Source: Thermodesulfobacteriota bacterium | Lineage (GTDB): Bacteria > Desulfobacterota_D > UBA1144 > Nemesobacterales > Nemesobacteraceae | Reading direction: 5' to 3' | Assembly (NCBI GenBank): GCA_965221875.1 | Contig: OZ244920.1 | Span: forward strand, 489,164-553,163 | Length of the DNA: 64,000 bases | In this document: piece after piece, positions 354 to 39,963 of the stretch | Position numbering within the stretch: position 1 is the first letter of the stretch | How the letters are laid out: every line of letters starts with the position of its first letter | Position numbers and translations under genes: made by a program | The notes under the pieces: generated by a model | Seen by the model: the letters and a program-made list of their open reading frames with translations, nothing else | Told to the model about the DNA's origin: nothing | Database searches by the model: none

Positions 354-2048
354 TTATTCGGGTGCGACTTTGAACACGTTGTCGCCGATTTCTTCTCCGG
401 CAATGCCCGTGTTTCTGCGGATAATGTCGGCAAGCTTCGTTTCTTCCACTCTCCTTAGTTCCTCCGCCGACAGGATGCGCTGGTACCAGAAACGGTCGCC
501 GTCGCGCAGCACCCTGAACTGATGGGAGACGATCGTGTGAAAAAGCTCGCCGAGCATTGATTCGCCATGACGACCTTCCGCTATCCCCGCACTCCAGATA
601 TCCATGTCGTCCGTGGTTTCATAGACCTCGCGAAGCTTTCTTTGCACTTCAGGATCTTTGTTTATGTCAGAGAAACTCTCATTCCGCCCAAGTCCCAGCG
701 CTTCGCGCATTTCGTTGTAGTCAGGAAGTCCGTGATCCCGGCCGCGCTGAATGTTGAGGCTGACCAGGTCAAGACCCGCCCCTTGAATTCTCGGTGTTCC
801 CGTCGGCAGGCTGTCTACGAACAGGAAGTTGCGGACATCATCAATGATGAGCGGGTCCACCCGCTGGTGCTTGCGGGTCGCAAAACCTCTGAGTATCAGA
901 TCAATACCGGATTGTATCGGGTCAATTCCTAATTCGGCGAACCTATCCGGCCTGACGAAAAAAGCGTCTTTTAATGCCACTGCCCCAACCTCTTCGCCGT
1001 GCGTGTCGACAAGTGGAATTTTCGGATCAAGGAAGGTGTGTCCTACCCGGAAGGCTGCCGAGGAAAATGAATTGACAACGCCTGAGTTGATTGAGTCATC
1101 ATAGCCGGAGTAAGGCGGCAGAGCGTCGGGTCCCAGCAGTAAGGGCAGAAATTCATTATAGGTGATCGCCTGTATATGGGCTCCGACTATCCGTCTTGCC
1201 CTCTGATAGATTTCCTCGCCGGACAAACTGGGGTTGCTCATGGCAATTTCTTCGGCAAGCCTGTTATGCTCACGCATAAAAAGCGCTTGGATCGAGAGGA
1301 TGCCGAGATTTTCGTTAGCCCGTTCGTCGCCGGCAAAGAAAAAAACCGATAACGCGAAACGAGAGTTGGGAAATTGCCGCTCGTTTCTGGGAAGAAAGTT
1401 TCCTTCGGATGTCTTAAGTCTGCCGGTTCCGTCGTTTGTCCGCAATGCGTCCGCGCGTTTCGCGTCAGATCCGTAAACGGTTGACGCGTCAATCCATCCG
1501 GTGACTTCATTCATCTGCTGGCGAGGGTTTTCCCCTGATCCGCCGGTGGCCGGATCATTGATGGCGCGATTGAAGAACATCTCGGCCTCGCCGGTTCCCT
1601 GCGGATCTAAAATTTCATCTCCCCGCGGAATCTTGATATTGGCCGGTTCTTCGTCGGAATTATCTGAGAAAGTGATGTCGTGATCTATGAACTGCCCCCA
1701 GAGCCACATGAAATTGGTTGTTGAGTCCGGATTGGCAATCAGTTCTTTCTGGGCGTGTACGATGTTGCTGATTCTTCTGGGGTTGGGACGGTCCGGTCCG
1801 GAAAAAGAGCTTATTCCGTCAGCGTATGCGGCAGGGGCGAGGCGAACCAGCTGAGTAACCGCCTTATTCATTTCCGGATATTTGAGATTATTGCCGCTTC
1901 CGTCAATCGTTCTGTATAACTGAACCTCAGCGGGAATATCATTTTTATCTGATCCTCCGCATGTAGTCACGGCGAAAACAGCGCAGAGCAGCAGAGCGCC
2001 TCCCGGATTCAGCTGCCATGAATGCAGAAAAGATAAAAAACGCCTCAT
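354..2048 (-). CDS. animal-type heme peroxidase family protein (peroxinectin/peroxidasin-like), predicted lipoprotein
   Basis: ORF with WGQFIDHD distal-His motif, RFWY, HN motifs typical of PF03098 animal heme peroxidases; likely start MRRFLSF at 2046-2048 giving signal/lipobox LLLCAVFAVTTC; start abuts stop of upstream adhesin gene. Confidence 0.85.
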   Translation of the reverse strand: MRRFLSFLHSWQLNPGGALLLCAVFAVTTCGGSDKNDIPAEVQLYRTIDGSGNNLKYPEMNKAVTQLVRLAPAAYADGISSFSGPDRPNPRRISNIVHAQKELIANPDSTTNFMWLWGQFIDHDITFSDNSDEEPANIKIPRGDEILDPQGTGEAEMFFNRAINDPATGGSGENPRQQMNEVTGWIDASTVYGSDAKRADALRTNDGTGRLKTSEGNFLPRNERQFPNSRFALSVFFFAGDERANENLGILSIQALFMREHNRLAEEIAMSNPSLSGEEIYQRARRIVGAHIQAITYNEFLPLLLGPDALPPYSGYDDSINSGVVNSFSSAAFRVGHTFLDPKIPLVDTHGEEVGAVALKDAFFVRPDRFAELGIDPIQSGIDLILRGFATRKHQRVDPLIIDDVRNFLFVDSLPTGTPRIQGAGLDLVSLNIQRGRDHGLPDYNEMREALGLGRNESFSDINKDPEVQRKLREVYETTDDMDIWSAGIAEGRHGESMLGELFHTIVSHQFRVLRDGDRFWYQRILSAEELRRVEETKLADIIRRNTGIAGEEIGDNVFKVAPE

Positions 2049-2049
2049 C

Positions 2050-5000
2050 TCAGCAAGTATCTTTTTTGTTTTTTGTCTGAATGCCGTTTTCGTGTTGCGC
2101 GTTTCGCCTCCCCGCAAGCAACATCATCCCCAGCAAGAAAACCCCAAGAGCAAACTCCGGAATGTTCTGCCTGAATCCGCTGCCGGAAGCAACGGAGCAT
2201 CCTCCTCCCGCACCTGTCGTCTGGGTTGGTTCGCTTGTGTCGTGGGAGGGAGAGACGGCAGAAGAAGTCCCCTCATCCTGCCCGCAGATATCATTGTCTG
2301 TAAAAACAATATCGTTATCATCAACCCACTGCGTGAACCACTGCTCTTCGGGAGCGCATACCCCGCTTCCGCTTATGTCAACATACTCAAGCGCGGTATC
2401 CGCTATACGCTGTGGCAGTTCTCCCGTTAAATCAGGATTGTCAGAAACATCAAGCCTCTCAAGATCTGAAAGCTCCCACACAGCATCCGTGATATCCCCT
2501 CTTAACCCCGAAGCCGAGAGATCAAGCTCACTTACCCTGTCCTCACTGTTAACCCCTACCCCCTGCCATCCTGAATAATCAAAAACAGTTTCATCAAGAG
2601 CAAACCAGCCCTGAAGAGAAGAATCTCCATTAACGTCCTTAACTCTTCTAAGCACCGCCCTGTCAACCCTCTTTCCAAGCTCATCAGTAATTGTTCCCCC
2701 AAGCCCCGCATTGCCCCAGAGGGCAAGCTCTTCAAGAGAACCAAGTGTCTCAAGCTCCGCTACGGGAATAGTTCCCGCAAGGCTGTTATCGTTCATCCAG
2801 AGAACCTCAAGCTGCTCAAGCTTGCCTATATCCTGATCAATGGTTCCGGAGAGATTGTTGTCTTCGAGGAGAAGCTCAGTAACCCTGCCGTCTGAATCAG
2901 CGCTCACCCCGTACCACAGAGCAATCGGTGCATCACTGTTCCAGTTGTCATTGCGTGTCCATCTTGCTCCCCCCGAAGCTTTGTATATCTCCACAAGCGC
3001 CCCGCGGTCAGGACTCGTAACGTCGTCCGTATTTCCACTGAATGTACCGGTATCTTCACTGACCGCATCGGTAACAGTCGGCGGGTCGTCATCGTCACTG
3101 ACCGTAACAGACGCTGATAACCTGGTACCCACAGTGTAGCCGGTTCCCTGTTTTAATGTCACAGTCACGCTTCCTCCCGGTTCGTCCTTTTTGTCATCCA
3201 GTGTAGACACGGTAAAGGATGCTGAACCCTTATTCGCCTTGATCGTAACTGTTTTGGTTCCTTCATTGCCTGAGTGCACAAAATCCCCTTCGCCTGAATC
3301 CTCAGAGACCGACAGGTTCACTGTAATGTCTTTTGCCGGAGCAGGAGAGGCGCTCACAGTGAATTTAGCGGCCTTACCCTCAGTTACTCCTAAACCACCG
3401 GAGATTGTGATTTCGGGAGTCGGGTCGTCATCATCTTCAACTGTTACGGACGCAGACCCCGGAGACCCTGCACTGTATCCGGTACCCGCCTCCACGGTTG
3501 CAGTGATGGTTCCGTCGAGCTCATCCGCGTTGTCGTTCACCGTTGTCACGGTCAGGCTGGCCGTACCGTCCGTGCCTATAGTTACCCTTGTTGAGCCGGT
3601 CTGCCCGCTTACCGCGAAGTTGCCGCTGTCAGATACCGTGACTTTCACAAAGACACTGCCGGAGCTCGGGGCGGGCGATGCGGTCAGGGTGAAAGTGGCT
3701 GACCCACCTTCGGTTACGGCGTTCCCGCCGGAGATGGTGACTTCAGGAGTCGGGTCGTCATCATCTTCAACTGTTACGGACGCAGACCCCGGAGACCCTG
3801 CACTGTATCCGGTGCCCGCCTCCACGGTTGCAGTGATGGTTCCGTCGAGCTCATCCGCGTTGTCGTTCACCGTTGTCACGGTCAGGCTGGCCGTACCGTC
3901 CGTGCCTATAGTTACCCTTGTTGAGCCGGTCTGCCCGCTTACCGCGAAGTTGCCGCTGTCAGATACCGTGACTTTCACAAAGACACTGCCGGAGCTCGGG
4001 GCGGGCGATGCGGTCAGGGTGAAAGTGGCTGACCCACCTTCGGTTACGGCGTTCCCGCCGGAGATGGTGATTTCAGGAGTCGGGTCGTCATCATCTTCAA
4101 CTGTTACGGACGCAGACCCCGGAGACCCTGCACTGTATCCGGTGCCCGCTTCCACGGTTGCCGTGATGGTTCCGTCCGGCTCATCCGCGTTGTCGTTCGC
4201 CGTGGTCACGGTCAGGCTGGCCGTACCTCCCGTGCCTATAGTTACCTTTTTTGAGCCGGTATGGCCGTTAGCCGCGAAAGAGCCGCTGTCGGCTATCATG
4301 ACTCTCACCGAGATATCGGAGCTCGGGGCGGGCGATGCGGTCAGGGTGAAAGTGGCAGATTCCCCTTCGGTTAAAGTGCTCCCGCCGGAGATGGTAATTA
4401 CAGGAGTCGGGTCGTCATCATCTCTGACTGTCACGGACGCGGAATTCGGAGATCCTATACCATAGCCGCTGCCTGTTCCCAGAGTCGCAGCGATGGTTCC
4501 GTCAAGCTCGTCCGCGCTGTCATTCACCGTGGTCACGGTCAGGCTGGCCGTACCTCCCGTGCCTATAGTCACCTTTTTTGAGCCGGTCTGGCCGTTAGCC
4601 GCGAAAGAGCCGTTGTCGGCTATCGTGACTTTCACCGAGATGGCGGAGCTCGGGGCGGGCGATGCAGTCAGGGTGAAAGTGGCAGATTCCCCTTCGGTTA
4701 CAGCGCTCCCGCCGGAGATGCTCACCAGCGGAACTGTCGGAGGCGCTGTATCGTCAGATTCAATTACTACGTCAAAACTGTTGCTGCTCCCGTGCGGGTT
4801 CGCCCCGCCGCCAACGTTGGTGCCCAGCCCCGCGCGGTCAAAACCGTTGGTTCCGCCGCCGTCGGGACCCAGAGCGACAGTAAGGGTTTCGTCGCTTTCA
4901 ATGTGACTGTCATCTGTCGGCGTCAGCGTTAGGGTAGCCGTTCTGGCTCCGGCATTTTGGAAAATCACCGCGGGCGTGAGAGTGTCTGAACCGGAGACGG

Positions 5001-6369
5001 TGACGCCCTTGTTAAGACTGCCGCCGCTTTTTTTTGCCAGGCTGAAATCCCCGGCTGTGACTCCGCTGCCGGACAGTACAAGAGGCACGTCAATACGTTC
5101 GCCCGTCGCAAGCGCGCGGCTCAGGGTCACCGTGAACTCCGCGTCCGCCTTCACTCCCGTCCCGCCCTCCGCCACTGCTCCCGAATCACTGCGCCCGAGA
5201 TTCACCACCACCGCGTCGTTATCCTCTATGGTAATCGTGACTAGATTGAGATACCCCGCGGCTATTCCCCCAGGCAGAGAGCTGCCAAACTGTATCACTA
5301 CCCTCTCAGACGACTCGTCCGTACTGTCGTCAACCGCCGCGAAGCTCCCGCTGCCGCTTTTTGCCCCGTCGGCAATGCTGATGGAACTTGGTGCCGTGTA
5401 GTCCCCGGACTGCGCGGTCGTGTCTCTTCCGATAACCAGGGGAATGCTGAGCGCACCGCCCGAGGCATTGCTGCTTGTCAGCATCGCTGTAATGCTGAGT
5501 GCCCCGTCCCCTTCGGTCATACTGGTAGCTGATCGGCCGTTCACCAAAAGGTTCACCGTATTAGTGCGCTCGAATGTCATCCTTGCCACAGGAGCGGTTG
5601 CTCCCGAAAACTTGCCTTTCCCCCTAAGGCTGGTGATTGGCACATGAGGTTTGCTGGGAGGATTGTTAAGCGAAAATTCAGTCCCTTCCTCCGTGCCCGC
5701 GTCGTAGGGATAAAGATCCAATGTGACGGAAGAAATCCAGTTGCTCTGGCTGTTGAGAAGAGAATAATTCGAGACTCCTATAAACCAGTCCGGGGAGAAA
5801 TCAAGCATAGCCAGAAAAGTAACCAGAGGAGCTTTTTTGCATAAGGTGATTACTCTGCTCAATGTCTCCTCGCCGCGTGGATAACGACCATACGGGAAGA
5901 AATCGGTAGCTTCCACGGTACCTGCTCTGAATTCATCGATAATTTCATCATTAATCTCAAACGTTTCGCCGAGTTCCGCAACATTTTCCACACCCGGGCT
6001 TGCCATGCCGCCTGGCTTCCAGAAAGTTTTCTGACTGGTATGTGTGACCCATATTATCTGGGTGAACCGCGCAATGTGCGGAAGACCTCCCGGAGAGCTC
6101 GCGCTGTTGAAATTGCCCTGAAACGTCATTCTATAGTGAACCAGTTCGTTGGTAGAGCAAGGGTCACCGGCATAAGCCGTTTCCGTCTTTGCGCCGAGAA
6201 CTGCTGCGGCGAGAACAAGTACCATCGCAACGCTGAGAAATCCGGAAAACCGGTTTTTGCTCGGTCGGGATTTTGATAAAGGATTTTGCGGAAAGGAGGG
6301 AACTGTGGATGAAGGTGCCGCAGGTTCCTGAGTCGGCAACCTCTGGGATTTTGCTGAAACCGAAGACAT
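2050..6369 (-). CDS. giant secreted surface/adhesin protein: spondin_N-like N-domain, five ~110-aa Calx-beta-like tandem repeats, LRR region, C-terminal sorting signal
   Basis: 1439-aa ORF; N-terminal hydrophobic signal; 110-aa repeats DDDDPTPEITISGG..TEG.SATFTLTAS..VNDNADE.DGTITAT (Calx-beta-like); LRR segment LSGTIDQDIGKLEQLEVLWMNDNSLAGTIP; C-terminus GGGCSVASGSG..IPEFALGVFLLGMMLLAGRRN (PEP-CTERM/MYXO-CTERM-like tripartite signal). Confidence 0.8.
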   Translation of the reverse strand: MSSVSAKSQRLPTQEPAAPSSTVPSFPQNPLSKSRPSKNRFSGFLSVAMVLVLAAAVLGAKTETAYAGDPCSTNELVHYRMTFQGNFNSASSPGGLPHIARFTQIIWVTHTSQKTFWKPGGMASPGVENVAELGETFEINDEIIDEFRAGTVEATDFFPYGRYPRGEETLSRVITLCKKAPLVTFLAMLDFSPDWFIGVSNYSLLNSQSNWISSVTLDLYPYDAGTEEGTEFSLNNPPSKPHVPITSLRGKGKFSGATAPVARMTFERTNTVNLLVNGRSATSMTEGDGALSITAMLTSSNASGGALSIPLVIGRDTTAQSGDYTAPSSISIADGAKSGSGSFAAVDDSTDESSERVVIQFGSSLPGGIAAGYLNLVTITIEDNDAVVVNLGRSDSGAVAEGGTGVKADAEFTVTLSRALATGERIDVPLVLSGSGVTAGDFSLAKKSGGSLNKGVTVSGSDTLTPAVIFQNAGARTATLTLTPTDDSHIESDETLTVALGPDGGGTNGFDRAGLGTNVGGGANPHGSSNSFDVVIESDDTAPPTVPLVSISGGSAVTEGESATFTLTASPAPSSAISVKVTIADNGSFAANGQTGSKKVTIGTGGTASLTVTTVNDSADELDGTIAATLGTGSGYGIGSPNSASVTVRDDDDPTPVITISGGSTLTEGESATFTLTASPAPSSDISVRVMIADSGSFAANGHTGSKKVTIGTGGTASLTVTTANDNADEPDGTITATVEAGTGYSAGSPGSASVTVEDDDDPTPEITISGGNAVTEGGSATFTLTASPAPSSGSVFVKVTVSDSGNFAVSGQTGSTRVTIGTDGTASLTVTTVNDNADELDGTITATVEAGTGYSAGSPGSASVTVEDDDDPTPEVTISGGNAVTEGGSATFTLTASPAPSSGSVFVKVTVSDSGNFAVSGQTGSTRVTIGTDGTASLTVTTVNDNADELDGTITATVEAGTGYSAGSPGSASVTVEDDDDPTPEITISGGLGVTEGKAAKFTVSASPAPAKDITVNLSVSEDSGEGDFVHSGNEGTKTVTIKANKGSASFTVSTLDDKKDEPGGSVTVTLKQGTGYTVGTRLSASVTVSDDDDPPTVTDAVSEDTGTFSGNTDDVTSPDRGALVEIYKASGGARWTRNDNWNSDAPIALWYGVSADSDGRVTELLLEDNNLSGTIDQDIGKLEQLEVLWMNDNSLAGTIPVAELETLGSLEELALWGNAGLGGTITDELGKRVDRAVLRRVKDVNGDSSLQGWFALDETVFDYSGWQGVGVNSEDRVSELDLSASGLRGDITDAVWELSDLERLDVSDNPDLTGELPQRIADTALEYVDISGSGVCAPEEQWFTQWVDDNDIVFTDNDICGQDEGTSSAVSPSHDTSEPTQTTGAGGGCSVASGSGFRQNIPEFALGVFLLGMMLLAGRRNAQHENGIQTKNKKDTC
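3090..4740. repeat. ~330-bp tandem DNA repeats (5 units, central units near-identical) encoding the Calx-beta-like modules of the adhesin
   Basis: cgggtcgtcatcatcttcaactgttacggacgcagaccccgg recurs at 3421, 3751, 4081, ~4408 with near-identical intervening sequence. Confidence 0.7.
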
Positions 6370-6659
6370 CTGTTTCTTCCGGTGGTTTTAAGCTACCTCT
6401 AAGAAATATTCTTAAAGTTTTAGGCGCTTCTAAAAAATACCCTCGTATAGCATCAGTTAAACTTGAAAACACTAAAAAAGGGAAAAGTCTATCAACTCAC
6501 CCCCCCCTGTCAAACTGCGGGGTGGCATGTGGAACTTTCATGTGCGCCTCCGGAGGCCGGTGGATAGGGTGGATGCTATGAGGATGGCCGCGACGGCATG
6601 ATAGCCGGTAGCGTCATGGGCGATTGTATCCATGGCGAAGAAGGCAACGACTCCATATA

Positions 6660-6730
6660 AGAGCATGGGTGGTGACAACACTCTTGACGGCGGTTCAGGA
6701 AACGACAAGCTCTGCGGGGTGAATCAGTTT
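6660..6730 (+). pseudogene. short remnant of an RTX (GGxGxD) repeat gene within a 1.3-kb ORF-poor region
   Basis: Translation GGDNTLDGGSGNDKL matches hemolysin-type Ca-binding nonapeptides of the RTX gene at 9546-11639. Confidence 0.25.
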
Positions 6731-7404
6731 CTGTGCTCTCGCAATGTTATCTCAGCATTCCACCGAATAACACATAACCACAGAATATTTTCACAGTATC
6801 AACCTTTCAACAGGACACACTTAACTCGGTGGGTTCTATGGTGCACACATAAGAGCGTGCAGATAGGGCTCATAATTTTTCTTCAGAAACAATCGAATGG
6901 TTCAAGGGGGAGGTAAAGAACCCTGACGCCACCCGTTACGGTCTGGCTAAGGAACTATGCGAGCGGGACAACTGGCGTAATAACAAGGGGAAGCTGTGTG
7001 AGGGATCGGCACGGAAGATACTTCCCAGGATAGCAGACAGTATAAAAGTCACTCTTTCCCCCACTCGGTCTTTGCCCCCGGCCATGGTTCCCGGAGGGGC
7101 TCCTCCCGCTGAGTACGGCAGGGTCGGGGGTATAGGGTTCTGCGCGGCAAGTTGGCATCAGGGAGCTCGGGACAACTGGATTGGGTGGTCACAATCCGCG
7201 CGGGCAGAGAATCTTGACAAGGTGGTGAACGATCACTAAGGTTCTTCTAGGCGAACATCGGGTTTTTGAAGGCACAGTGACCTAGGTGTTCTTTGGGTTC
7301 TGTCGGAGAATCGGCGGGAAAAGGTCTTTTCTGGCAGACACGAGTTAAGTGTGGGTAGTCGAAAGATCCGAACTGTTTAACCAACCTGTGTGAAGCTTCC
7401 TTAG

Positions 7405-9345
7405 TAATTGAGGCATTTGCGTAGTAAAGGATATGCCTGCAGGGCAAGGGGTTTGGGATGGGCAAAAATATTTCTTACCCCAGAATTTCTACCAAAACCC
7501 TCGAAAACCGCCTGATTCTCTCCAGAAACCACAAATTTCACCCCAAGACCAAACAGATTGAAACTAATGCGGGGGCAAGTAACTTACTGATATTACTTGA
7601 TTTAATGTCGCCATGGGTTAGAATTAATGGTGACAGCCAAATTCACTTTCCCGGAGGAAAAAACCCATGGCGACACAATCTAATCTACCTTTTTGCTGGA
7701 ACCAAGTCGACAAACTCTCCGACCTCAGACGTCTCGAACTTGTTCTAGATGCATTGCCTGATGATGAAATCATTCACGCTCTTTTGGCAATGCGCGGAAA
7801 CGGCCGTAACGAATACCCGGTGGCGGCGATGTGGAGGGCGCTTATTGCTGGCATAGTCTTCCAGCACGCCTCCATAGAATCACTCATACGGGAACTTGAC
7901 CGTAACTCATCACTGCTTGAGATGTGCGGGTTTTGCCCCGTACCCCTGCAAAGCCGTACCAGGTACGAAATTGAACCGAGTGAAGGCATAGCCGGGGTGA
8001 TAGCCATAGATTCCCCTCCCCGCACTCCCGCTCCCAAAAGCTCTGCCTTCTCCCGGTTCCTCTCAAACATAGTAAAGCTTGAACAACAGCGGGGGCTTAT
8101 CTCAAAGATGATTGACACAATGAGGGAAGAGCTGATGGAACTGCTGCCTGACTTCGGTGAGAACCTGGGTTATGACGGCAAGGCCGTAGAAAGCCACTCC
8201 ACGGGAAAGGAGAATCGCAGGACAGGGGAGACTTCAGACCCTGGGGCTGACTGGGGAAAACACGAAACCAAAGGCGTTGATTCAAACGGCAAGGCGTGGA
8301 AGAAGATAAAAACATGGTTTGGTTACGGATTGCATATCATAGCCGACACCAGGTACGAGATACCGGTTGCCTTCAGTTTGACCAAGGCGTCTGTTTCGGA
8401 AGTGAAGGAACTTGACCGCATGACAGATCTGTTGTTTGGAAAAGCCCCGGAGTTAAAAAACAGATGCAGATACTTCAGCGCTGACAAGGGGCTTGACAGC
8501 GGTGCTTTGAAGAAGAAATTCTGGGATGATTATGAAACTCGTCCCATTATAGACATAAGAGAACTTTGGAGAGAGGAGAAGCAGGGACAGAGCTATGTTT
8601 GCGGACAGAAGATCATGAGACCTCTTGGGAGTGTTCACGACAATATCTTCTATACGGAGAAGGGACAGATATGGTGTCGGTGTCCTGTAAGCGGAGAAGA
8701 GCGCAAGATGGTATTCAGTGGGTTTGAACCCGGTAGATGCAGTTTGAAGTTCCGCTGTCCGGCGGCAGTGCTTGGTCTTCACTGCAAAGGGTGGGAGAAG
8801 TGTCACAGGGATGCGCAATGCGAGACAAACGGTTACGGCAGGGTCGTACGCGTGCCTCTTGAGAAGGACCGTCGTATATTTACTCCAACGCCGCGGTGCA
8901 GTACATCATGGAAACGGGCTTACAGGCGCAGAAGCGCCATAGAGCGTATCAACTCCAGAATCGATAACAGTTTCGGGTTCGAAAAACACTTTATCAGGGG
9001 CAAGGCGAAGATGACCACCCGGGTGGGGCTGGCTTTGGCGGTGATGATGGCCCTTGCAGTTGGTCACATAAAAGCTGGGAGGCCTGAGTGTATGAGGTCT
9101 CTTGTGGGTGGGGGTTGGGCTAGGGCTGGATAACATCCCGGTGATTCAGTAAAACAATTTAAACAGTAGTTAACCCAGAAGGGAAAGTTGCGTCCGCGGC
9201 TGATCGGGAGAGGTGAATCGGAGGCGGATTACGTCTGAATCGGGCAGTATGGCCATCTGAGTGCCGGAATACGTCTCGCCGCCGCTCTCGTTCCAGAAAC
9301 CTGAACCCTGAAAATCGTTACAGCGCAAATGCCACGTAATTGGGT
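7405..9345 (+). mobile_element. IS4/IS5-superfamily insertion sequence (~1.94 kb) with ~25-bp terminal inverted repeats
   Basis: IRL 7405-7427 AATTGAGGCATTTGCGTAGTAA vs reverse complement of IRR 9316-9342 AATTACGTGGCATTTGCGCTGTAA; encloses DDE transposase ORF. Confidence 0.6.
7667..9133 (+). CDS. DDE transposase (IS4/IS5-like, DDE_Tnp_1 type)
   Basis: 488-aa ORF; N-terminal LELVLDALPDDEII..MWRALIA..ESLIRELDRN and C-terminal Y..R..AIERINSRID motif typical of IS4-like transposases. Confidence 0.8.
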   Translation: MATQSNLPFCWNQVDKLSDLRRLELVLDALPDDEIIHALLAMRGNGRNEYPVAAMWRALIAGIVFQHASIESLIRELDRNSSLLEMCGFCPVPLQSRTRYEIEPSEGIAGVIAIDSPPRTPAPKSSAFSRFLSNIVKLEQQRGLISKMIDTMREELMELLPDFGENLGYDGKAVESHSTGKENRRTGETSDPGADWGKHETKGVDSNGKAWKKIKTWFGYGLHIIADTRYEIPVAFSLTKASVSEVKELDRMTDLLFGKAPELKNRCRYFSADKGLDSGALKKKFWDDYETRPIIDIRELWREEKQGQSYVCGQKIMRPLGSVHDNIFYTEKGQIWCRCPVSGEERKMVFSGFEPGRCSLKFRCPAAVLGLHCKGWEKCHRDAQCETNGYGRVVRVPLEKDRRIFTPTPRCSTSWKRAYRRRSAIERINSRIDNSFGFEKHFIRGKAKMTTRVGLALAVMMALAVGHIKAGRPECMRSLVGGGWARAG

Positions 9346-21798: not shown

Positions 21799-22593
21799 TA
21801 GTATAGCATCAGTTTAGTACTGATGGGTTTTTCAAGTCTGAGTTATTGAGGTAATGTTTCAGGAAAGAATACGGGTGAGCTAAGGCTGAAAGAACACAAG
21901 CTGTCTGTCCGCATTTCGGTGGAACGTTGAGCGGACATTGATTTAGCGTGAGGAGGTCTTGCTGCCCGAGACCGGGAGGCAAACCATGACAAAGAAGTAT
22001 CGAATCAGACTCAGCGAAGAGGAACGTTTGAATCTCACAGAGATAGTGAGCAAAGGGAAGGCGGCTGCGTACAGACGTCGTCACGCGCATATACTGCTGC
22101 TTGCCGACGAGAATTCAGAGTCGGGAGGGATGGTTGACAAGCAGATTGGGGAATCCGTGCTTGTGGGGGTTGCTACGGTAGAGAGGGTACGGCGTCGCTG
22201 TGTTGAGGATGGGCTTGAAGCCGCGCTTGAGCGGCGAGAGCAGAAAAACCGAAGAAAGCCGGTGCTTGACGGGGAAGGGGAAGCAAGGCTTGTAGCCATT
22301 GCCTGCAGTTCTCCGCCGGAAGGTCACGCGAGATGGTCGCTTCGGCTGCTTGCGGACAAGCTTGTGGAGCTTGAGGTGGTGGACAGCATAAGCAGGGAGA
22401 CGGTAAGTAAGGTTTTAAAAAAAATGAACTTAAGCCCTGGAAGAGCAAGTGCTGGTGCATTCCTCCCATAGAGAACGAGGAATTCGTCTGCGCAATGGAG
22501 GACCCTATATGTCAGGGGAGTTGTCGCGATTTTTGAGTTTTCAAGTTTGAAAAAATTAATTTTTTGAAACTTGAAAAAAGGAGGACAACTTCT

Positions 22594-23088
22594 ATGCAGT
22601 ACAGTTACGAATTCAAGGCACAGGCAGTACAGAAAGTTCTTAACCGTGATCCCGAGGTTTCTTTCAATTCCGTTGCCCAAAGCTTCGGCATTGATCATTC
22701 TACTCTGCGCAGGTGGGTGGCTAAATCTCAAAACCATCACCTCGCGGAGGAGAATATGACCAAGGAGAAAACACCCCAGCAGTGGACCCCCGAGGAAAAA
22801 CTCCAGGCCATTATAGCCTGTGAATCCCTGGATTCACAGCAGACAAGCGCCTGGTGCAGGGAAAACGGAATCTTTCCCCACCACATAAAACAATGGAGAG
22901 ATGAGTTTACGCAAAACTCTCCAAAACCTGCGTCGGGGGGTAGAAAGAAAATAAGAGAACTTACAGAAGAGAACAAGTCCCTTAAAAAGGAACTGCGAAG
23001 AAAGGAAAAGGCGTTATCCGAAACTGCAGCTCTTCTGGTTCTTAAAAAAAAAGTCGACCAGCTTTGGGAGAACGAAGAGGACGACTGA
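22594..23088 (+). CDS. IS3-family transposase OrfA (HTH + leucine zipper)
   Basis: MQYSYEFKAQAVQKVL.. with RBS aaaggagg; coiled coil ELRRKEKALSETAALLVLKKKVDQL. Confidence 0.75.
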   Translation: MQYSYEFKAQAVQKVLNRDPEVSFNSVAQSFGIDHSTLRRWVAKSQNHHLAEENMTKEKTPQQWTPEEKLQAIIACESLDSQQTSAWCRENGIFPHHIKQWRDEFTQNSPKPASGGRKKIRELTEENKSLKKELRRKEKALSETAALLVLKKKVDQLWENEEDD

Positions 23089-24119
23089 CTGTGAGTGAAG
23101 ACAGGAAGAAGATAATCGGCGCAATCAATGAAGCGGTGACTTCAGGGGCAAGACGCGCGAAGGCTTGTGAGGTCGCGGGGATAAGCCTGAGAACACTTCA
23201 GAGATGGGCAAAGCCGGGCAATGTTCATGACGGGCGCATAAATGCCCGTCATGAGCCTGCCAACAAGCTCAGCGAGGAGGAAAGAGTGGAGATTGTGAAG
23301 GTTGCAAACAGTCTCAAGTACTCTGATCTGCCTCCGTGCAAGATAGTGCCTTTACTGGCTGACTCAGGGCGTTATATAGCCAGTGAATCGACGTTCTGCA
23401 GGGTTCTGGGGGAGAAGGGACAGATGACCCATCGTCACCGCTCAAAACCAAAGAGCAAGAAAAAACCCAGAGAACTTAAGGCCACGGGCCCAAACCAGGT
23501 TTACAGCTGGGATATAACGTGGATCCCCGCAAGAATAACGGGGATGTACTTTTATCTGTATATGGTGATGGACATATACAGCAGGAAAATAGTTGGATGG
23601 CAGGTCTATGAGAGAGAATCAAGCGCCAGGGCCGCCGATCTTATGACCGATATATGCGAGAGGGAAGGAATAAGACCCGATCAGGTGACTCTGCACTCCG
23701 ATAACGGAGGGGCGATGAGGGGAGAGGTTATGCTTGTGACCTTGCGGCGTCTCGGGGTGGTTCCGTCTTTCAGCCGTTCCGGGGTAAGCAGTGACAACCC
23801 TTATTCGGAGTCTTTGTTCAAGACGATGAAATACGTGCCGTATTATCCGCAGAAGGGGTTTTCGGAGATAGTGGAAGCACGGCAGTGGGTTGATAAATTC
23901 GTTACTTGGTACAACACGGAGCATCTGCACAGCGCTATAAAGTTCGTTACGCCCAAGCAGCGTCATGATGGTCTTGATAAGGAGATACTATTGCGACGCG
24001 CTTATGTATACGAGCAGGCCAGGGAGAAGAATCCCGCTCGGTGGTCAGGCAAGACGCGGGACTGGTCTGAGATACTGGAGGTGTTTCTTAATCCTGACAA
24101 CACAAAGAAAGCAGCTTGA
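23064..24119 (+). CDS. IS3-family transposase OrfB (rve integrase core), expressed by -1 frameshift from orfA
   Basis: DDE rve motifs YSWDITWIP..MDIYSRKIVGW..HSDNGG..WYNTEHLHSAI. Confidence 0.75.
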   Translation: MGERRGRLTVSEDRKKIIGAINEAVTSGARRAKACEVAGISLRTLQRWAKPGNVHDGRINARHEPANKLSEEERVEIVKVANSLKYSDLPPCKIVPLLADSGRYIASESTFCRVLGEKGQMTHRHRSKPKSKKKPRELKATGPNQVYSWDITWIPARITGMYFYLYMVMDIYSRKIVGWQVYERESSARAADLMTDICEREGIRPDQVTLHSDNGGAMRGEVMLVTLRRLGVVPSFSRSGVSSDNPYSESLFKTMKYVPYYPQKGFSEIVEARQWVDKFVTWYNTEHLHSAIKFVTPKQRHDGLDKEILLRRAYVYEQAREKNPARWSGKTRDWSEILEVFLNPDNTKKAA

Positions 24120-24841
24120 TATGACTGAAAACAGTTTGACATGGAGACTATTGGAGGTAATCGTTAGGGCGATCGACTTAAAATATGCGACAACTACCCT
24201 GAAAAACACCGAGGACGTGCTGAGCGTGTATCAGCGTGAATTCAAGGACGATGAAGTGCTTGTGTGCATGGATGAGACCACAAAGCAGCAGACAAAGGAA
24301 ACACGTGTTCCCATTGGGATGGGGCCCGGAAGGGAAGCGATATATGATTATGAATATGAACGCAACGGGGTGAGCAATCTGTTTATGCTGTTTGCGCCCA
24401 TTGAGGGCAGGCGTCATGTGGAGGTGACGGAACGGAGGACGAAGGAGGATTGGGCTGAGGCGATACGGGGTCTTGTGGATGTGCATTATCCCGGCAAGCG
24501 AATTGTTCTGGTTATGGACAATCTGAATACTCATGGTCCGGCGTCTTTTTACAAGGCGTTTTCCCCCGAAGAGGCGCGCAGGATTATAGAGAGGCTTGAG
24601 ATTCACTACACTCCGAAGCATGGGAGTTGGCTTAACATGGCAGAGATAGAGATAGGAGTTCTTCGGCGTCAGTGTCTTGACCGTCGTATAGGGGATCGGG
24701 AGACTCTGGGGCGAGAGGTGAGTGCTTGGCAGGATAAGCGCAACGAAGACGGAAACACAGTGGATTGGCGTTTTACCACGGAGGATGCGAGAATCAGGCT
24801 TAAATCGTTATACCCATCAATGCAAAACTGATGCTGTACTA

Positions 24842-26033
24842 GCGTAGTGTCCTAGTTATACCTTTAATTATTCTTCTGCTGTGGTAGAATAACAATACCA
24901 TAGCTTGGAGGAAAATTAATGCGTATTGCGGCGGCAATAGAATTATCGGAAGAAGAGGGGAAAAAGCTAAAGCGTCTTTCATCATCTCGGAGTATATCTG
25001 TGGGACTGCACCACAGAGTTCGCATTGTGCTGATGTCCGCTGAGGGAAAGACAAACAAAGAGATTTCCGCTGAACTCGGACTGTCCCAGCCCACAGTAAG
25101 TTTGTGGCGCAACAGGTTTGCGGAGGAAAGGATAGAAGGCATTGAGAAGGAACGTCCCCGGGGAGGCAATCATGGTGGAAGAGATTCTGAGGAGCAGCAG
25201 AGGTTGCGGACAAAGATAATTGAAGCTACGACACAGACGACTCCTTCGGACGCAACGCACTGGTCGTGTCGCAGCATGGCGAGGGCTATGGGCACTACCC
25301 ACAGTTTTGTAAACAGGGTATGGAGAGCCAATGGGCTGAAGCCCCATTTGATAAAGACGTTCAAGCTGAGTAACGATCCGAAGTTTGAAGAGAAGCTTGT
25401 GGATGTGGTGGGGCTGTATGTGCATCCGCCGGAGAATGCGGTGGTGTTCAGCTTTGATGAGAAGAGCTCAATACAGGCGCTTGACAGGACTCAGCCGGGG
25501 CTGCCGCTGAAAAAGGGTCGAAGTGGTACAATGACGCATGACTACAAGCGTCATGGAACGACATCTTTGTTTGCGGCTCTGAACATAGCGTCGGGGGAAG
25601 TGATAGGGAAATCCTACCGCAAGCATCGTCATCAGGAGGTGTTGAAGTTTTTCAAGGAAGTGGAGAAGTCGGTAGACAAGGGTTTGGAGATACATGTCAT
25701 TCTGGACAATTACAGCACGCACAGGCACAAAGATGTGCTTGAATGGATAGAGAGCAAGAAGCGGATATATCTGCACTTCATACCGACAAGTTCTTCGTGG
25801 TTGAATTTGGTGGAGCGTTTTTTTTCAACTCTTACGGAAAAGCAGATACGTCGGGGTGTGTTCACTTCAGTTGCGCATTTGGAAAAAAGCATAAAGAACT
25901 ATTTGGATACGTACAATGAGAATCCTCGTCCGCTGGTATGGACGAAGTCTGTTAAGGAGATAACACAGAAAGTAGGAAGAGGTCGGAGAGCACTTGCGGA
26001 ACAAAACTAAAGATGTAATTAGGACACTACACT
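24842..26033 (+). mobile_element. IS630-family element (copy B), 1.19 kb, ~21-bp TIRs, flanked by TA, directly abutting copy A
   Basis: Left TIR GCGTAGTGTCCTAGTTATACC (24842-) vs right-end reverse complement GTGTAGTGTCCTAATTACATC (..26033); TA at 24840-24841 and 26034-26035. Confidence 0.7.
24919..26010 (+). CDS. IS630-family transposase (HTH + DDE_3)
   Basis: 363 aa; N-terminal HTH (KTNKEISAELGLSQPTVSLW), FDEKSSIQALDR, DNYSTHRH, SSWLNLVERFF motifs. Confidence 0.85.
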   Translation: MRIAAAIELSEEEGKKLKRLSSSRSISVGLHHRVRIVLMSAEGKTNKEISAELGLSQPTVSLWRNRFAEERIEGIEKERPRGGNHGGRDSEEQQRLRTKIIEATTQTTPSDATHWSCRSMARAMGTTHSFVNRVWRANGLKPHLIKTFKLSNDPKFEEKLVDVVGLYVHPPENAVVFSFDEKSSIQALDRTQPGLPLKKGRSGTMTHDYKRHGTTSLFAALNIASGEVIGKSYRKHRHQEVLKFFKEVEKSVDKGLEIHVILDNYSTHRHKDVLEWIESKKRIYLHFIPTSSSWLNLVERFFSTLTEKQIRRGVFTSVAHLEKSIKNYLDTYNENPRPLVWTKSVKEITQKVGRGRRALAEQN

Positions 26034-26426
26034 AGTGTACTGCCTCATAATTGTAGAGACGCCATGAGCGTCGGGCAAATTGATGCCGGGTCCTGTCGAC
26101 TCCAACGAGAAGTTGAGGTTTCGCTTGTTTCCCAGACGGGTATTGTATTCTGCGAAAGACCCGACGGAGCGGGCTCTCGTTAGAGTCAACATTTGAGATA
26201 TTAACACAGTTGTTTCCCAATGGGAAGAATTATGTTATAGTAGGAAGCAAGGAGAAGGTTATGGACTATGAGTTCTGGGTAATGATAGCTGGCTTTGTAG
26301 CTGTTTTAGGCTTCTTGTGGAGGTTCTCACAAGATGTTAGTGGCCAGATAGCTGACTTGAGAGAAAGAATGGCAAAGCTTGAGGGTGTAGTCGAAGGTTT
26401 TATGAAAGGTAACCAATAAACGATGA

Positions 26427-27338
26427 CTAAGCAGATTCCAGATGGGAACAAGGTTGCTTTTGAGGCATTACTAGAACAGATGCTTCTGGGTGAAGCAACT
26501 CAAGAAGAAGAGAGAACATCCGATGAGGAATCTTTCGAGTGTTGTAGCGAAAGTCAAACTCAGCAAGATACTTAGGCATATGTTTCTCTGATATGTGTAT
26601 ATGAGTTCCAAGCACACTTCTCTTGAATAAAGACCAGTAACCTTCAATGCTGTTCGTATGACAGGTTCCAACCACCCATTGCTTTATTCCATGCAGAACA
26701 GTCTTATGTTCATAATCTGAACCCAGGTGCTTATAAGCCCACCACTCATCGGTATTTATCTTTGAACCCTTCATAACGTTCTTTCTGATTACAGGCTCTA
26801 TGGTGCTTCGCTTCGCATCAGGCACTACTTGGGTCTTAACAGATCCATTTCTCTGTGTTATGCCAAGCACCACGGTCTTTCCTTCCGCTCCCCTTCCACG
26901 CTTGCCCGGCTTCTTGCCTCCCATATAGGTCTCGTCTATTTCGATCTCGCCGAATAGCTGGCTTGTATCAAGCTTCGCCATATGAAGGCGTAATTGATGA
27001 GCTATCCGCCACGCGCATTTATAGGTAACTCCAAGCTGTCTCTCAAGCTCCTTAGCGGATACTCCGTGTCTTGTGGAAGTAAAGAGATAAATGGCATAGA
27101 ACCACTTATGAAGCGGAGTAGTAGACTTCTCAAAAAGTGTTCCCTTGCAGGGATAGACGTGATAACCACAGAACTGACAGGCATGCGCCCTGCGCTTCGT
27201 TATGCGATGATACTTTGTCTTCCTGTTGCACTTTTTGCAGACAGGATAACGCTTGGAATAAAACTCCATGATCTTTGCGAGACAAGCATTGTCATTCGGG
27301 AACTCCTGCTGAAATTGATAGAACGAGTATTTTTTCAT
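26427..27338 (-). CDS. IS1595-family (ISXO2-like) transposase
   Basis: 303 aa; N-terminal Zn-ribbon CKKCNRK..CQFCGY, DDE_Tnp_IS1595 core, C-terminal HTNSIEGYWSLFKRSVLGTHIHISEKHMPKYLAEFDFRYN. Confidence 0.8.
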   Translation of the reverse strand: MKKYSFYQFQQEFPNDNACLAKIMEFYSKRYPVCKKCNRKTKYHRITKRRAHACQFCGYHVYPCKGTLFEKSTTPLHKWFYAIYLFTSTRHGVSAKELERQLGVTYKCAWRIAHQLRLHMAKLDTSQLFGEIEIDETYMGGKKPGKRGRGAEGKTVVLGITQRNGSVKTQVVPDAKRSTIEPVIRKNVMKGSKINTDEWWAYKHLGSDYEHKTVLHGIKQWVVGTCHTNSIEGYWSLFKRSVLGTHIHISEKHMPKYLAEFDFRYNTRKIPHRMFSLLLELLHPEASVLVMPQKQPCSHLESA

Positions 27339-27640
27339 TTGACATTAATTCCGAGTGAGTATGTAAATCATACTATGATCGACTTCGCTCCTCATAGTAA
27401 GCAAGATAATGGCCAAGACAGGAAGCGAAATCTATCTGAAGCTGTGCCATCTGTAGAGGTGATAAACGAAGACGCAAAGGGCCTTCTTCTTCAGCGTCAT
27501 TATATCGAAACAATATTTCAAGGATTATCTTTTCTTCCCGACAGTGTACTTCAAACTTGGGGGTACAAGAGATTAACTTAGGCAAATGATTCATATTGGA
27601 TATAAATCCACCTGTTTCTCTACTTGCTGTTAAGGGATAA

Positions 27641-27934
27641 TTGCCCAAAAAAATTTCACTGTCTCGCAAGGACGATTTTCTTACTGTTGAGTTTCACCAC
27701 CTTGAGGCTCCTTTAAAAGAGGTTTATTCAGGACCGTATCAAGGAAAAACAACGCTAGACGGAGAAGACATAGAGGCCGTACTTGATAGAGAGGTAATGT
27801 CGATTTCTGATATAACAGACACTCTTCGGTCTCTTACTGCCACTGTATCAAATATGGAGAAGAGCATAAACAAGACTTTATGGATTGTTGGCCTTGGAGT
27901 GGCTGCTATAGCAATTTTGGTCGCTCTTAAGTAG
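27641..27934 (+). CDS. small hypothetical protein with C-terminal TM anchor (start uncertain)
   Basis: ORF ending ..NKTLWIVGLGVAAIAILVALK. Confidence 0.25.
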   Translation: MPKKISLSRKDDFLTVEFHHLEAPLKEVYSGPYQGKTTLDGEDIEAVLDREVMSISDITDTLRSLTATVSNMEKSINKTLWIVGLGVAAIAILVALK

Positions 27935-28002
27935 ACCTACCATCGAGAAAATCAATCAGTTAATCAATTTCTCGTAAGTAAGCCTTTTCCCCGCAAGTCC
28001 CG

Positions 28003-28240
28003 AGATGGTAAAGTTTATCTGGTCTATAGTGTGCATAGGACGGACATTTGTACGGTTGGCAAATTCGTTAATGTACTTCTTACCGACATACTGTGATAAA
28101 CGCCATAATAACCGCGCTTCAATAAAGCCCAGAGTGACTCAACGCCGTTGGTATGGGCTTCCCTTTAACGTACTCCCCGCTCTTATGATTAACCTTACAG
28201 TGTTCATATCCCAAGTGGGCGAGTATATGCAGTTTTGAAG
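28003..28240 (-). pseudogene. C-terminal remnant of a second IS1595-family transposase gene
   Basis: Minus-strand translation ..HTNGVESLWALLKRGYYGVYHSMSVRS.. matches the IS1595 transposase C-terminal motif. Confidence 0.5.
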
Positions 28241-28566
28241 GTTTGAAACCAAACACCGAATACGAGTTTAGAGATTCGATTCAAGAACGAGCACGGAAAG
28301 AGCGAACCAGTTTTAATCAAGTTTTGCACTGGAAGTCAAGGCACTGCGGGTATCTGACTTCCCGTTACACTTAATCTGAAAGAAACTACCATGTCAGAGA
28401 TTGCATATTACGATTTATTCGGACCATCTTTTCAGTTGAATTCGGACGGTCATTACGAACGAATTCGGACGGCTGAATCTCTTTTTTCTTTTCCCTCAAA
28501 ACAGACTCTAACACGTTCAGAATTTCTCTGTCAAACGACGATTAAAAAGTCTGTTTTTTTTCTCTC

Positions 28567-29355
28567 CTAACAATCACCTTTATTCTCTTCTTTTTCCTTT
28601 GCCGATGTCTGTTTTTCTTCCTTCTCCGCAACGATCTTTCTCATAGATTCCCCGCCGAGTTCAAGACGATGAGAGTTGTGAACGATTCTGTCAAGGATCG
28701 CGTCGGCAACCGTGTTGTCCCCTATCATTCCGTGCCACTCACTCACCGGAAGCTGACTTATCACCACAGTAGAACTCTCCCCGTAACGGTCATCCATTAT
28801 CTCCATCAGATCATATCTCTGGGCCGTGGTCACAGCCTCAAGACCCCAATCGTCTATGATAAAGAGCCCCACTCTGGCAAGCTTTGAGAGAAGCTTGTTG
28901 TAGCTTCCGTCCGCCTTTGCCTGAGAGAGAGCAAAAAACAGTCTTGAGATCCTGTAGTAACGAACCGATACCCCTCTGAGACACGCGTTATGACCCAGGG
29001 CGCACGCTATCCATGTCTTGCCGCTCCCGCAAGGACCCGTTATGAGAAGATTGCGGCCCCGCTCTATCCAGTCCCCCTGGGCAAGCCCTGCGATCTGAGC
29101 CTTTCTCAGGTTACGGGAATGGCCGTAGTCAATATCTGCCAGGTCGGCTTTTAACCTGAAGCGAGCGTTGCTTACGAGACGCTGCTGTTTTCTGCTCTCC
29201 CTCTCAACGCATTCTCTCTCCACAAGCAGTCCGACCCTCTCCGTAAAACCCAGTTCATCGTAAGTGCGGGACTGCTCGCACTGACGCTCAAGCGCCTCGG
29301 CCATGGCTCCAAGCCGAAGTCCCCGAAGACGTGACAATGTCTGTTGCAAACTCAT
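28567..29355 (-). CDS. istB: IS21-family helper ATPase IstB
   Basis: 262 aa; Walker A GPCGSGKT, Walker B LFIIDDWG, IstB family architecture. Confidence 0.85.
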   Translation of the reverse strand: MSLQQTLSRLRGLRLGAMAEALERQCEQSRTYDELGFTERVGLLVERECVERESRKQQRLVSNARFRLKADLADIDYGHSRNLRKAQIAGLAQGDWIERGRNLLITGPCGSGKTWIACALGHNACLRGVSVRYYRISRLFFALSQAKADGSYNKLLSKLARVGLFIIDDWGLEAVTTAQRYDLMEIMDDRYGESSTVVISQLPVSEWHGMIGDNTVADAILDRIVHNSHRLELGGESMRKIVAEKEEKQTSAKEKEENKGDC

Positions 29356-29729
29356 AACAATCTCCTCCTGTTTTTATTTGTATTTCTTTGCTCCCCTGAT
29401 GTTCTTGTGATCCTGGGGAAGAACTGTTTCTTTTTCCTGCTCCTCAAACAGCGGCAACACCTTGTCCCTCCCGTTTTTAAGAATCTCCCTTACCTGCTTG
29501 TACCCTGTAAGTCCTTTCCTGTTGGCCACCCTGCATGCGTCGTTGAGTCTTTTGGGATAATCATTGGAGAGCTTCCTCAACCCCAGAAACGTCCTGTAGA
29601 CCTGCTCCACATGATCTTTTAACTCAAACTGACGCTCAAGCCATTCACTTACAGAAGTGGACCCCAAAATTTAGACAGCGTCTTAAGTGTATTTCTTTGA
29701 TGTAAGATAAAGTACAGAGGAGGTACACA

Positions 29730-30008
29730 ATGAGGAGTAAAAGACGCAATCATTCATCGGAGTTCAAGGCGAAGGTGGCGCTAGCGGCGATAAAAGGGGA
29801 GAAGACGGTAGCAGAACTGTCCCAGCAGTTCGGAGTTCACGCAAACCAGATCAGCATCTGGAAGAAGCAGCTGCTCGCGAATGCTGGAAACGCTTTCGGG
29901 GGCGAGGGCAAGAACGCGACAGGGGAGAAGTACGTGAAGGATCTTGAGGCCAAAGTCGGTCAGTTGACCCTGGAGAATGATTTTTTATCCAAAGCGCTCG
30001 GTCGCTAG
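29730..30008 (+). CDS. IS3-family transposase OrfA
   Basis: MRSKRRNHSSEFKAKVALAAIKGEKTVAELSQQFGVHANQISIWKKQLL HTH. Confidence 0.7.
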   Translation: MRSKRRNHSSEFKAKVALAAIKGEKTVAELSQQFGVHANQISIWKKQLLANAGNAFGGEGKNATGEKYVKDLEAKVGQLTLENDFLSKALGR

Positions 30009-30046
30009 AGCGGGCGCAGCGCAAGGAACTCGTAGACCGCGGACAC

Positions 30047-35889: not shown

Positions 35890-35914
35890 AGGGGCGCCAT
35901 TGCGCCTCTTTTTT
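35890..35914 (+). terminator. rho-independent terminator (hairpin + T6) of the ATPase gene
   Basis: AGGGGCGCCattGCGCCTCT + TTTTTT. Confidence 0.55.
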
Positions 35915-37280: not shown

Positions 37281-39232
<1,952 letters not shown>

Positions 39233-39927: not shown

Positions 39928-39963
39928 TGCTGTTTTAAAATTTTTTTAATTTTCCCTTGACAG

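Follow-up and report, generated by a model that had tools for sequence, protein, structure and literature searches.

A conserved gene pair for a spondin-domain adhesin and an animal-type heme peroxidase in a Dadabacteria-like genome

We analyzed a 64,000-nucleotide (nt) stretch of DNA labelled Thermodesulfobacteriota bacterium (GenBank assembly GCA_965221875.1, contig OZ244920.1, positions 489,164 to 553,163 of the forward strand), referred to below as the window, and within it a pair of adjacent genes encoding a large surface protein (the adhesin) and an animal-type heme peroxidase. Positions 354–6369 of the minus strand are filled by two long, intact open reading frames (ORFs), with the adhesin gene first and the peroxidase gene following it. 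The elements of the pair are:

2050–6369, minus strand: gene for the large surface protein (adhesin), 1439 residues, with a Spond_N domain, repeats assigned to the Calx-beta fold, plant-type leucine-rich repeats (LRRs) and a C-terminal anchor-like signal
354–2048, minus strand: heme peroxidase gene, 564 residues, predicted lipoprotein (PF03098; closest structure 8s6c)
2046–2052, minus strand: gene junction TGA-g-ATG with a 1-nt spacer, read off the sequence

The adhesin stop codon (TGA, 2052–2050) and the peroxidase start codon (ATG, 2048–2046) stand one base apart, with no overlap; the junction reads ...GCTGAGATGAGG... and the region GCTGAGATGA around it is kept in an alignment of orthologues. 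The initial annotation had these two codons overlapping, which is wrong for the window, while gene calls in three orthologous loci do give true overlaps (ATGA in L089, 4 nt in L002 and 16 nt in L090). The tight linkage of the two genes holds, and at the gene level the pair has the appearance of an operon: the strand is common, the spacing is 1 nt and the order is retained in seven contigs. The peroxidase start is placed at ATG 2048–2046, and not at TTG 2117 of the mechanically called ORF, on the basis of the orthologue alignment and a database protein (P0001). From the gene layout alone we infer that the two genes are co-transcribed. An antisense ORF within the adhesin gene (3191–4465, plus strand, 424 residues) was rejected as a by-product of the repeat array, homology being found exclusively on the minus strand.

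The spacer of 1.3 kb that precedes the adhesin gene (6370–7666) holds no conserved element. A 240-nt stretch within it (window 6800–7035) is 68% identical to the region of a DruA (Druantia) gene that lies downstream of the peroxidase gene in L002, and may be a gene remnant. Comparison of the same spacer with L001 gave a 52-nt match; besides this and the L002 match there were no others.

The order adhesin-then-peroxidase recurs in six further Dadabacteria-like contigs, so that the conservation in related genomes that had been set as a check on the pair is borne out. The peroxidases of these loci are 69–78% identical to that of the window (L001/L006, 78%; L088, 77%, with its partner gene truncated by the contig end; L092, 74%; L002/L007, 73%; L089, 72%; L090, 69%, with a 1680-residue partner). 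The genes flanking the pair differ at every locus and include a trypsin-like protease, DruA, a dehydrogenase, a methyltransferase and various insertion sequences (IS). Since the surroundings are IS-rich and changed at each locus, the pair evidently survives rearrangement. In L002, two gene pairs of identical length (66 and 444 residues, without a Pfam match; 4314–5845 and 15838–17369, minus strand) lie in direct orientation and bracket the adhesin-peroxidase-DruA segment, in what looks like a composite-transposon arrangement.

Phylogenetic comparison of the peroxidases, also proposed at the outset, placed P0001–P0010 in a single clade in 200 of 200 neighbor-joining bootstrap replicates. This clade comprises all seven peroxidases of known paired context together with three of unknown context, and all peroxidases of known unpaired context branch outside it. 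The peroxidase of a further locus, L011 (CAYSDX010000022.1, 1–4302), branches off beneath the paired and unpaired groups alike. Its gene is flanked by two Spond_N genes that run on the opposite strand, one of them a 450-residue short form consisting of Spond_N, LRRs and a GGGC signal with no repeat stalk, and L011 is thus a second arrangement of the Spond_N-peroxidase association. Although its proteins group with Dadabacteria, the L011 contig has been assigned to a Spirochaetia bin. Literature searches returned no description of a spondin-peroxidase pair in bacteria, and the conserved pairing of a spondin adhesin with a peroxidase appears to be undescribed.

The adhesin combines an export signal, a putative binding domain, a repeat array and a C-terminal region of LRRs that ends in a short signal of its own:

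6169–6369, minus strand: N-terminal region with signal peptide (hydrophobic core at residues 44–60, long N-region), conserved in orthologues
5623–6138, minus strand: Spondin_N domain, residues 78–249 (PF06468, NF038123 and structure matches)
4852–5526, minus strand: two degenerate repeat units, residues 282–385 and 410–506 (weak matches to the repeat profile)
3085–4740, minus strand: five tandem 110-residue repeats of predicted Calx-beta fold, residues 544–1095 (repeat profile, AlphaFold2 and Foldseek)
2356–3009, minus strand: two blocks of a cap and plant-specific-type LRRs, residues 1121–1233 and 1252–1338 (LRR_1, phmmer, Foldseek)
2104–2214, minus strand: C-terminal tripartite signal composed of GAGGGCSVASGSGF, a hydrophobic helix and RR, conserved in relatives

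At the end of the signal peptide the orthologues share the sequence ...LGAKTE.(A/V)(Y/H)A, and cleavage probably occurs after A-Y-A at residue 67. A database copy of the protein (P0146, 1391 residues) is 100% identical and is called from Met49 (position 6225 as against 6369, minus strand); that start cuts into the signal peptide, and the N-termini of the orthologues favor a start upstream of it. The Spondin_N domain assigned earlier from the letters alone is well supported, by PF06468 (E 9.6e-33; 114.4 bits against a threshold of 24), by the NCBIfam model for bacterial spondin domains NF038123 (E 9e-20; 71.6 bits against a threshold of 40) and by matches to the solved structures of human F-spondin (3q13, 4e-24) and mindin (3d34, 1.5e-20).

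The clear repeats begin at residues 544, 654, 763, 873 and 983, and each is scored by a hidden Markov model (HMM) of the repeat at E 1e-52 to 1e-57; at the DNA level they appear as a 330-nt tandem array of 4 copies with 91% matches. The two degenerate units match the same model weakly in the window (E 0.018 and 0.25), and the first of them reaches 1.4e-5 in L001. Four orthologues have 3, 4, 5 and 8 repeats, a variation in number typical of adhesin stalks. Five Calx-beta-like repeats had been proposed. The 110-residue units and their fold bear this out, and the Pfam Calx-beta model does not: PF03160 matched neither the whole adhesin nor isolated repeats, even at E<=10, and only 2 of 44 related repeats match it, weakly. 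An AlphaFold2 model for the repeats (mean predicted local distance difference test score, pLDDT, 96.3) retrieved Calx-beta domains as all of its top 27 PDB matches in Foldseek (template modeling scores 0.67–0.77), with those of NCX1, CALX and integrin beta4 at the top, and the repeat HMM matches the Pfam-annotated Calx-beta segments of two relatives (P0161 and P0165) at 1e-8. The LapA repeat model PF20579 gives 23.1 bits for repeat 5 (E 1e-4), under its cut-off of 27, and is matched weakly by 20 of 44 diverse relatives of the repeat. By modeled fold and transitive homology we regard the units as a divergent adhesin repeat of the Calx-beta fold. Further proteins with the same 110-residue repeat are encoded a few kb from the pair in L089 (8465–10168, minus strand) and L090 (10420–12405, minus strand), the former also having an adhesin-type LRR C-terminal region, and repeat and LRR modules appear to be shuffled among surface proteins.

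In the 344-residue C-terminal region each LRR block opens with a W..W.GV cap, and the repeats follow the pattern LxxLxLxxNxLxGxIP. The assignment to plant-type LRRs stands: LRR_1 scores the C-terminal fragment at 31.7 bits against a cut-off of 20.6, and the best phmmer matches in the PDB are ectodomains of plant LRR receptor kinases (GSO1 at 6e-53, then FLS2 and PEPR1). An AlphaFold2 model of these 344 residues, built from 12 sequences, is of low confidence (pLDDT 56) and was used qualitatively only; its Foldseek matches are all plant LRR proteins. Beyond the LRRs, a Cys-containing stretch precedes GAGGGCSVASGSGF, and in 12 orthologues and paralogues the sequence GGGC..ASG.G is invariant and followed by a hydrophobic stretch, where a helix is predicted, and by RR. 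Curated NCBIfam and Pfam models of sorting domains gave nothing significant on this C-terminus (MYXO-CTERM reached only E 3.3–5.6), and the GGGC signal may belong to an uncatalogued sorting system.

The peroxidase is covered end to end by PF03098 (An_peroxidase; E 9.9e-149; 496.7 bits against a cut-off of 25; profile positions 1–530 of 530), which confirms the family suspected from its motifs. This is the sole domain found; the protein ends 5 residues past it, and dockerin and PEP-CTERM modules are absent. The features of the enzyme are:

1959–2048, minus strand: signal peptide ending in the lipobox V-T-T-C (Cys30; residues 27–30), its Cys aligned with the lipobox of orthologues
1677–1700, minus strand: distal heme motif WGQFIDHD (Gln, ester-forming Asp and distal His), residues 117–124, aligned to CyanoPOX and peroxinectin A
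1470–1493, minus strand: calcium-site motif IDASTVYG, by alignment
1311–1322, minus strand: R-A-N-E motif (catalytic Arg, ester-forming Glu), superfamily pattern X-R-X-X-E (PMC4420034)
1035–1052, minus strand: proximal His motif FRVGHT, aligned to solved structures
729–758, minus strand: LNIQRGRDHG, which holds the Asn partner of the proximal His, by alignment

Both signatures first picked out by eye, WGQFIDHD and RFWY (the latter at residues 519–522), are present. The set of active-site residues defined for the superfamily (PMC4420034) is complete in the window enzyme and invariant in its relatives, paired and solo alike, and conservation of these residues suggests a catalytically intact peroxidase. 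The closest solved structure is that of the cyanobacterial enzyme CyanoPOX (8s6c, E 6e-137), ahead of Dictyostelium peroxinectin A (6erc, 1e-82) and of mammalian myeloperoxidase and lactoperoxidase (~1e-70). By this ranking of structure-database matches, the enzyme is placed among the bacterial lactoperoxidase-like peroxidases (the LspPOX/CyanoPOX branch; Family 6 in PMC4420034). More than 7,900 homologues occur across many bacterial phyla; together with the cyanobacterial origin of the closest structure and the existence of an NCBIfam model for bacterial spondin domains, this number does away with the impression that the components of the pair are unusual in a bacterium.

Both proteins carry export signals. 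For the peroxidase a lipobox had been claimed, and the claim survives in part: Cys30 aligns with the Cys of a canonical lipobox, L-S-S-C-G-S, in ~35 orthologues (P0002–P0037), whereas the window sequence V-T-T-C-G-G has a Thr at position −1 and departs from the pattern used, [LVI][ASTVI][GAS]C. The enzyme is likely a lipoprotein, judged by this alignment, though the window copy is atypical at that position. An R-G-D triplet is found at residues 142–144 (1617–1625, minus strand), inside a conserved 'IP-x-GD' segment. KGD is the proposed integrin motif of peroxinectin. R/K-G-D occupies this position in 5 of 6 enzymes of the paired clade and 2 of 9 of the solo clade; because the G-D of the motif is conserved across the whole family, the R or K may be there by chance.

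The nearest genomes are metagenome-assembled genomes (MAGs) of 1.5–2.4 Mb labelled Thermodesulfobacteriota or Candidatus Dadabacteria, the latter being ranked by NCBI as a class within the former. The closest relatives of the adhesin repeat lie in MAGs of Cyanobacteria, Nitrospira, Chloroflexi and Gammaproteobacteria. IRC4_bin_6 and SB0677_bin_15, both among these MAGs with related repeats, are listed as MAGs of the sponge Ircinia ramosa (PMC8163846). The same study reports Dadabacteria from sponges and finds LRR, cadherin and fibronectin-type proteins to be enriched in the symbionts of sponges (PMC8163846). The window likely derives from a sponge symbiont.

We propose, with moderate confidence, that the two genes are co-transcribed and form a module of the cell envelope that serves interaction with host surfaces, in what is probably a sponge-associated Dadabacterium. 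The proposal builds directly on the domains, export signals, catalytic residues and tight, conserved linkage described above. The adhesin would form a long surface fiber, exported by its signal peptide and anchored or sorted through the C-terminal GGGC, helix and RR. Since the fiber would be held by its C-terminus, the plant-type LRRs would lie nearest the anchor, followed by the stalk of Calx-beta-fold repeats and, at the distal tip, the F-spondin-type domain, where binding to host or matrix would take place. The lipoprotein peroxidase would sit at the same envelope, so that both products are made together and located together. Bacterial peroxidases of the lactoperoxidase-like type (LspPOX, CyanoPOX) oxidize halides, pseudohalides and aromatic compounds with hydrogen peroxide. 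For CyanoPOX of Cyanobacterium sp. TDX16, oxidation of iodide and aromatics and targeting to the envelope through PEP-CTERM have been described (PMC11776367). With fiber and enzyme sharing one site, peroxide-driven oxidation of halides or aromatics would occur where the cell meets its host; possible roles include protection against host or ambient hydrogen peroxide, antagonism, and oxidative, perhaps covalent, chemistry acting locally on adhesin or matrix.

Several observations weigh against this proposal. A scan of the locus for promoters and terminators returned counts at chance level. The atypical lipobox of the window copy has been described above, and the window and the surroundings of the related loci, which were the parts covered, showed no sortase-like or other cognate sorting enzyme. 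The sponge origin of the window is itself deduced. The remaining points concern the association itself and also speak for a simpler account, in which the genes are neighbors by history, the peroxidase being a general envelope enzyme acting on hydrogen peroxide and halides and the adhesin an independent host-binding protein, with a shared transcript and no joint function. We consider that account possible, if clearly the less probable one.

Members of either family are also found without the other, even within a single genome: a solo peroxidase paralogue shares a genome with the paired L001 (L003/L024), and adhesin paralogues (P0152 and L093) have no adjoining peroxidase. Small Spond_N proteins stand alone, none of them beside a peroxidase, in a set drawn from a word-indexed search with the Spond_N domain that missed true orthologues. 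Peroxidase loci of other phyla (Planctomycetota, Cyanobacteria, Proteobacteria, Verrucomicrobiota and others) had a Spond_N neighbor in 0 of ~70 cases, and the pairing, which is not general, is limited to a single small clade of Dadabacteria. Solo and paired peroxidases have identical catalytic motifs. Finally, the same-strand linkage arose once, and its conservation could therefore partly be inheritance. Set against these points are the 1-nt spacing, which becomes an overlap in orthologues, the persistence of the pair at 69–78% peroxidase identity while all flanking genes change in IS-rich genomes, and L011, which keeps the association in another orientation. Retention amid such heavy rearrangement, together with the L011 arrangement, argues against a mere inheritance of neighbors, and we continue to prefer the envelope module.

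A more specific possibility is that the two proteins act as a split, peroxidasin-like cross-linker, the LRR/immunoglobulin (Ig)-like protein positioning the peroxidase, which would create covalent bonds with the help of hydrogen peroxide and the bromide or iodide of seawater. In such a scheme dityrosine or sulfilimine-type bonds would tie adhesin, bacterial envelope and host matrix together; we think both the scheme and these bonds improbable. The domain content does parallel that of peroxidasin (LRRs, Ig-like repeats and peroxidase), the LRRs adjoin the anchor, where a lipoprotein would sit, and the ester-forming Asp and Glu, which accompany halogenating activity in the superfamily (PMC4420034), are retained. 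Peroxidasin itself releases hypobromous acid to cross-link collagen IV (PMC5377774). The likeness is purely architectural, however, the peroxidase is of bacterial lineage, there is neither a von Willebrand factor type C (vWC) domain nor a fusion, and CyanoPOX was crystallized with non-covalently bound heme (PMC11776367). In its fullest form, by analogy, the pair would be a two-polypeptide counterpart of peroxidasin in which the membrane-proximal LRR region docks the peroxidase, and the peroxidase welds the Spondin-tipped fiber covalently to the sponge matrix or remodels that matrix, an idea we regard as doubtful; equally doubtful is its chemical side, in which the oxidants would come from host-derived hydrogen peroxide and seawater bromide or iodide.

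Very unlikely, in our judgment, is a haloperoxidase that makes halogenated metabolites in the sponge holobiont with the adhesin as unrelated cargo: the enzyme class oxidizes halides (PMC11776367, PMC4859513), but biosynthetic genes lie near none of the seven copies and the adhesin is their sole conserved neighbor. The eukaryotic ring of the Pfam names (Animal haem peroxidase, Spondin_N, the Calx-beta fold, plant-type LRR) might suggest that the region belongs to a eukaryotic host or was acquired from an animal very recently. This reading is effectively refuted by gene context (IS elements, MutS, GroEL and F-type type IV secretion genes), by the bacterial lipobox, by phylogenetic neighbors that are thousands of bacterial proteins, by a closest solved structure that is cyanobacterial and by identical proteins on a 2.1-Mb bacterial contig.

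Other parts of the window carry features of their own, which we list as they were observed. Its load of mobile elements is very high at 7667–9133, 21959–32306 and 50985–52157, and includes IS4/IS5-like, IS3, IS630-like, IS1595, IS21 (IstB with a Mu-like transposase) and TnpB/IS605 OrfB elements. Two ORFs with RTX (HemolysinCabind) repeats (9546–11639 and 13091–13738, plus strand) have a DDE transposase gene between them (11711–12853) and may be the two parts of a single RTX gene that an IS has interrupted. Three near-identical (100/100/97%) copies of a group II intron-like element, apparently without an ORF, lie on the plus strand at 35905–36544, 39290–39929 and 40068–40708, with RF02001 and RF01998 matches at 35999–36284, 39384–39669 and 40162–40447; copies 1 and 2 flank the GroEL gene (37592–39232), and copies 2 and 3 are in tandem, 778 nt apart. 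The window further encodes two AAA_14/DUF4143 ATPases (34652–35884 and 52340–53578), an SLFN/AlbA_2 protein (32698–34302) and adjoining SCO1/SenC and PCu(A)C copper chaperones (40766–41824, plus strand). A 708-residue protein with a genuine Pfam Calx-beta domain (57278–59404, minus strand, E 3e-17) is encoded directly upstream of F-type conjugation genes on the same strand (TraU, 56185–57174; TrbC, 55508–56374; TraN-like, 54310–55560).

The physiological role of bacterial members is described as largely unknown for part of the superfamily (PMC4420034), and a conserved link to a defined surface protein offers a concrete, testable context for bacterial animal-type heme peroxidases. The pair also gives an enzymatic partner to a group of proteins, those with adhesion domains and eukaryote-like repeats, that are thought to mediate contact with sponges, and shows one repeat type to be common to symbionts of several phyla. 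Were the welding of fiber to matrix true, it would be a means by which an enzyme fastens a symbiont within host tissue. The pairing itself is that of a small clade, and a joint function of the two products is a proposal of ours.

The window peroxidase most closely resembles CyanoPOX and LspPOX, with which it shares homology over its full length, the distal Gln, Asp and His, the R-x-x-E motif, the proximal His and Asn, the calcium-site residues and a catalytic core of ~520 residues without extra domains that is targeted beyond the cytoplasm. It differs from CyanoPOX in having an N-terminal lipobox and not a C-terminal PEP-CTERM, from the 'peroxidockerins' in having this lipobox only, where those carry dockerin modules, and from CyanoPOX and LspPOX alike in being encoded right after a giant adhesin gene.

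The initial annotation had likened the pair to arthropod peroxinectin. Both combine adhesion with a peroxidase, and the R-G-D at residues 142–144 of the window enzyme is a weakly suggestive further parallel. The likeness goes no further than analogy: a peroxinectin is one metazoan chain that carries an integrin motif of its own, the window pair consists of two genes and two proteins, and the match to peroxinectin A (6erc) is far weaker than that to CyanoPOX. With two genes, a bacterial lineage and bacterial closest relatives, the enzyme falls outside the peroxinectin family (Family 3). By domain content (LRR, Ig-like and peroxidase) peroxidasin is the closer analogue. Peroxidasin likewise brings together, in an extracellular setting, LRRs, beta-sandwich repeats of Ig-like type and a heme peroxidase that has the ester-forming Asp and Glu, and differs in that the window modules are divided between two polypeptides in reversed domain order, with an additional Spondin_N domain, no vWC domain, repeats of predicted Calx-beta fold in place of Ig C2 and a peroxidase of bacterial lineage. 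Neither an Ig C2 domain above threshold nor a vWC domain was found in the two proteins, which separates them from the peroxidasin family (Family 2).

The adhesin shares with LapA and with the eukaryote-like-repeat proteins of sponge symbionts a secreted, multi-repeat build and a variable repeat number, and LRR, Calx-beta and cadherin-type modules are common to several symbiont phyla. In contrast to those proteins it has a Spond_N tip, a base of plant-type LRRs, the GGGC signal and a linked enzyme; no LapA-type type I secretion or RTX secretion signal was seen in it. Its C-terminus has the tripartite layout of MYXO-CTERM, GlyGly-CTERM and PEP-CTERM signals, in which a short Gly/Cys signature is followed by a hydrophobic helix and a cluster of basic residues, but its Cys motif stands ~10 residues away from the helix and no model matches it. 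Bacterial peroxidases fused to dockerin or RTX modules have already been described (PMC4420034) and, given these fusions and the PEP-CTERM of CyanoPOX, association of a bacterial peroxidase with the envelope is not new. Every building block of the pair is of an already known kind; what appears to be new is the operon-level partnership of a peroxidase with a Spond_N/Calx-beta-fold/LRR fiber, and the GGGC C-terminal signal of that fiber.

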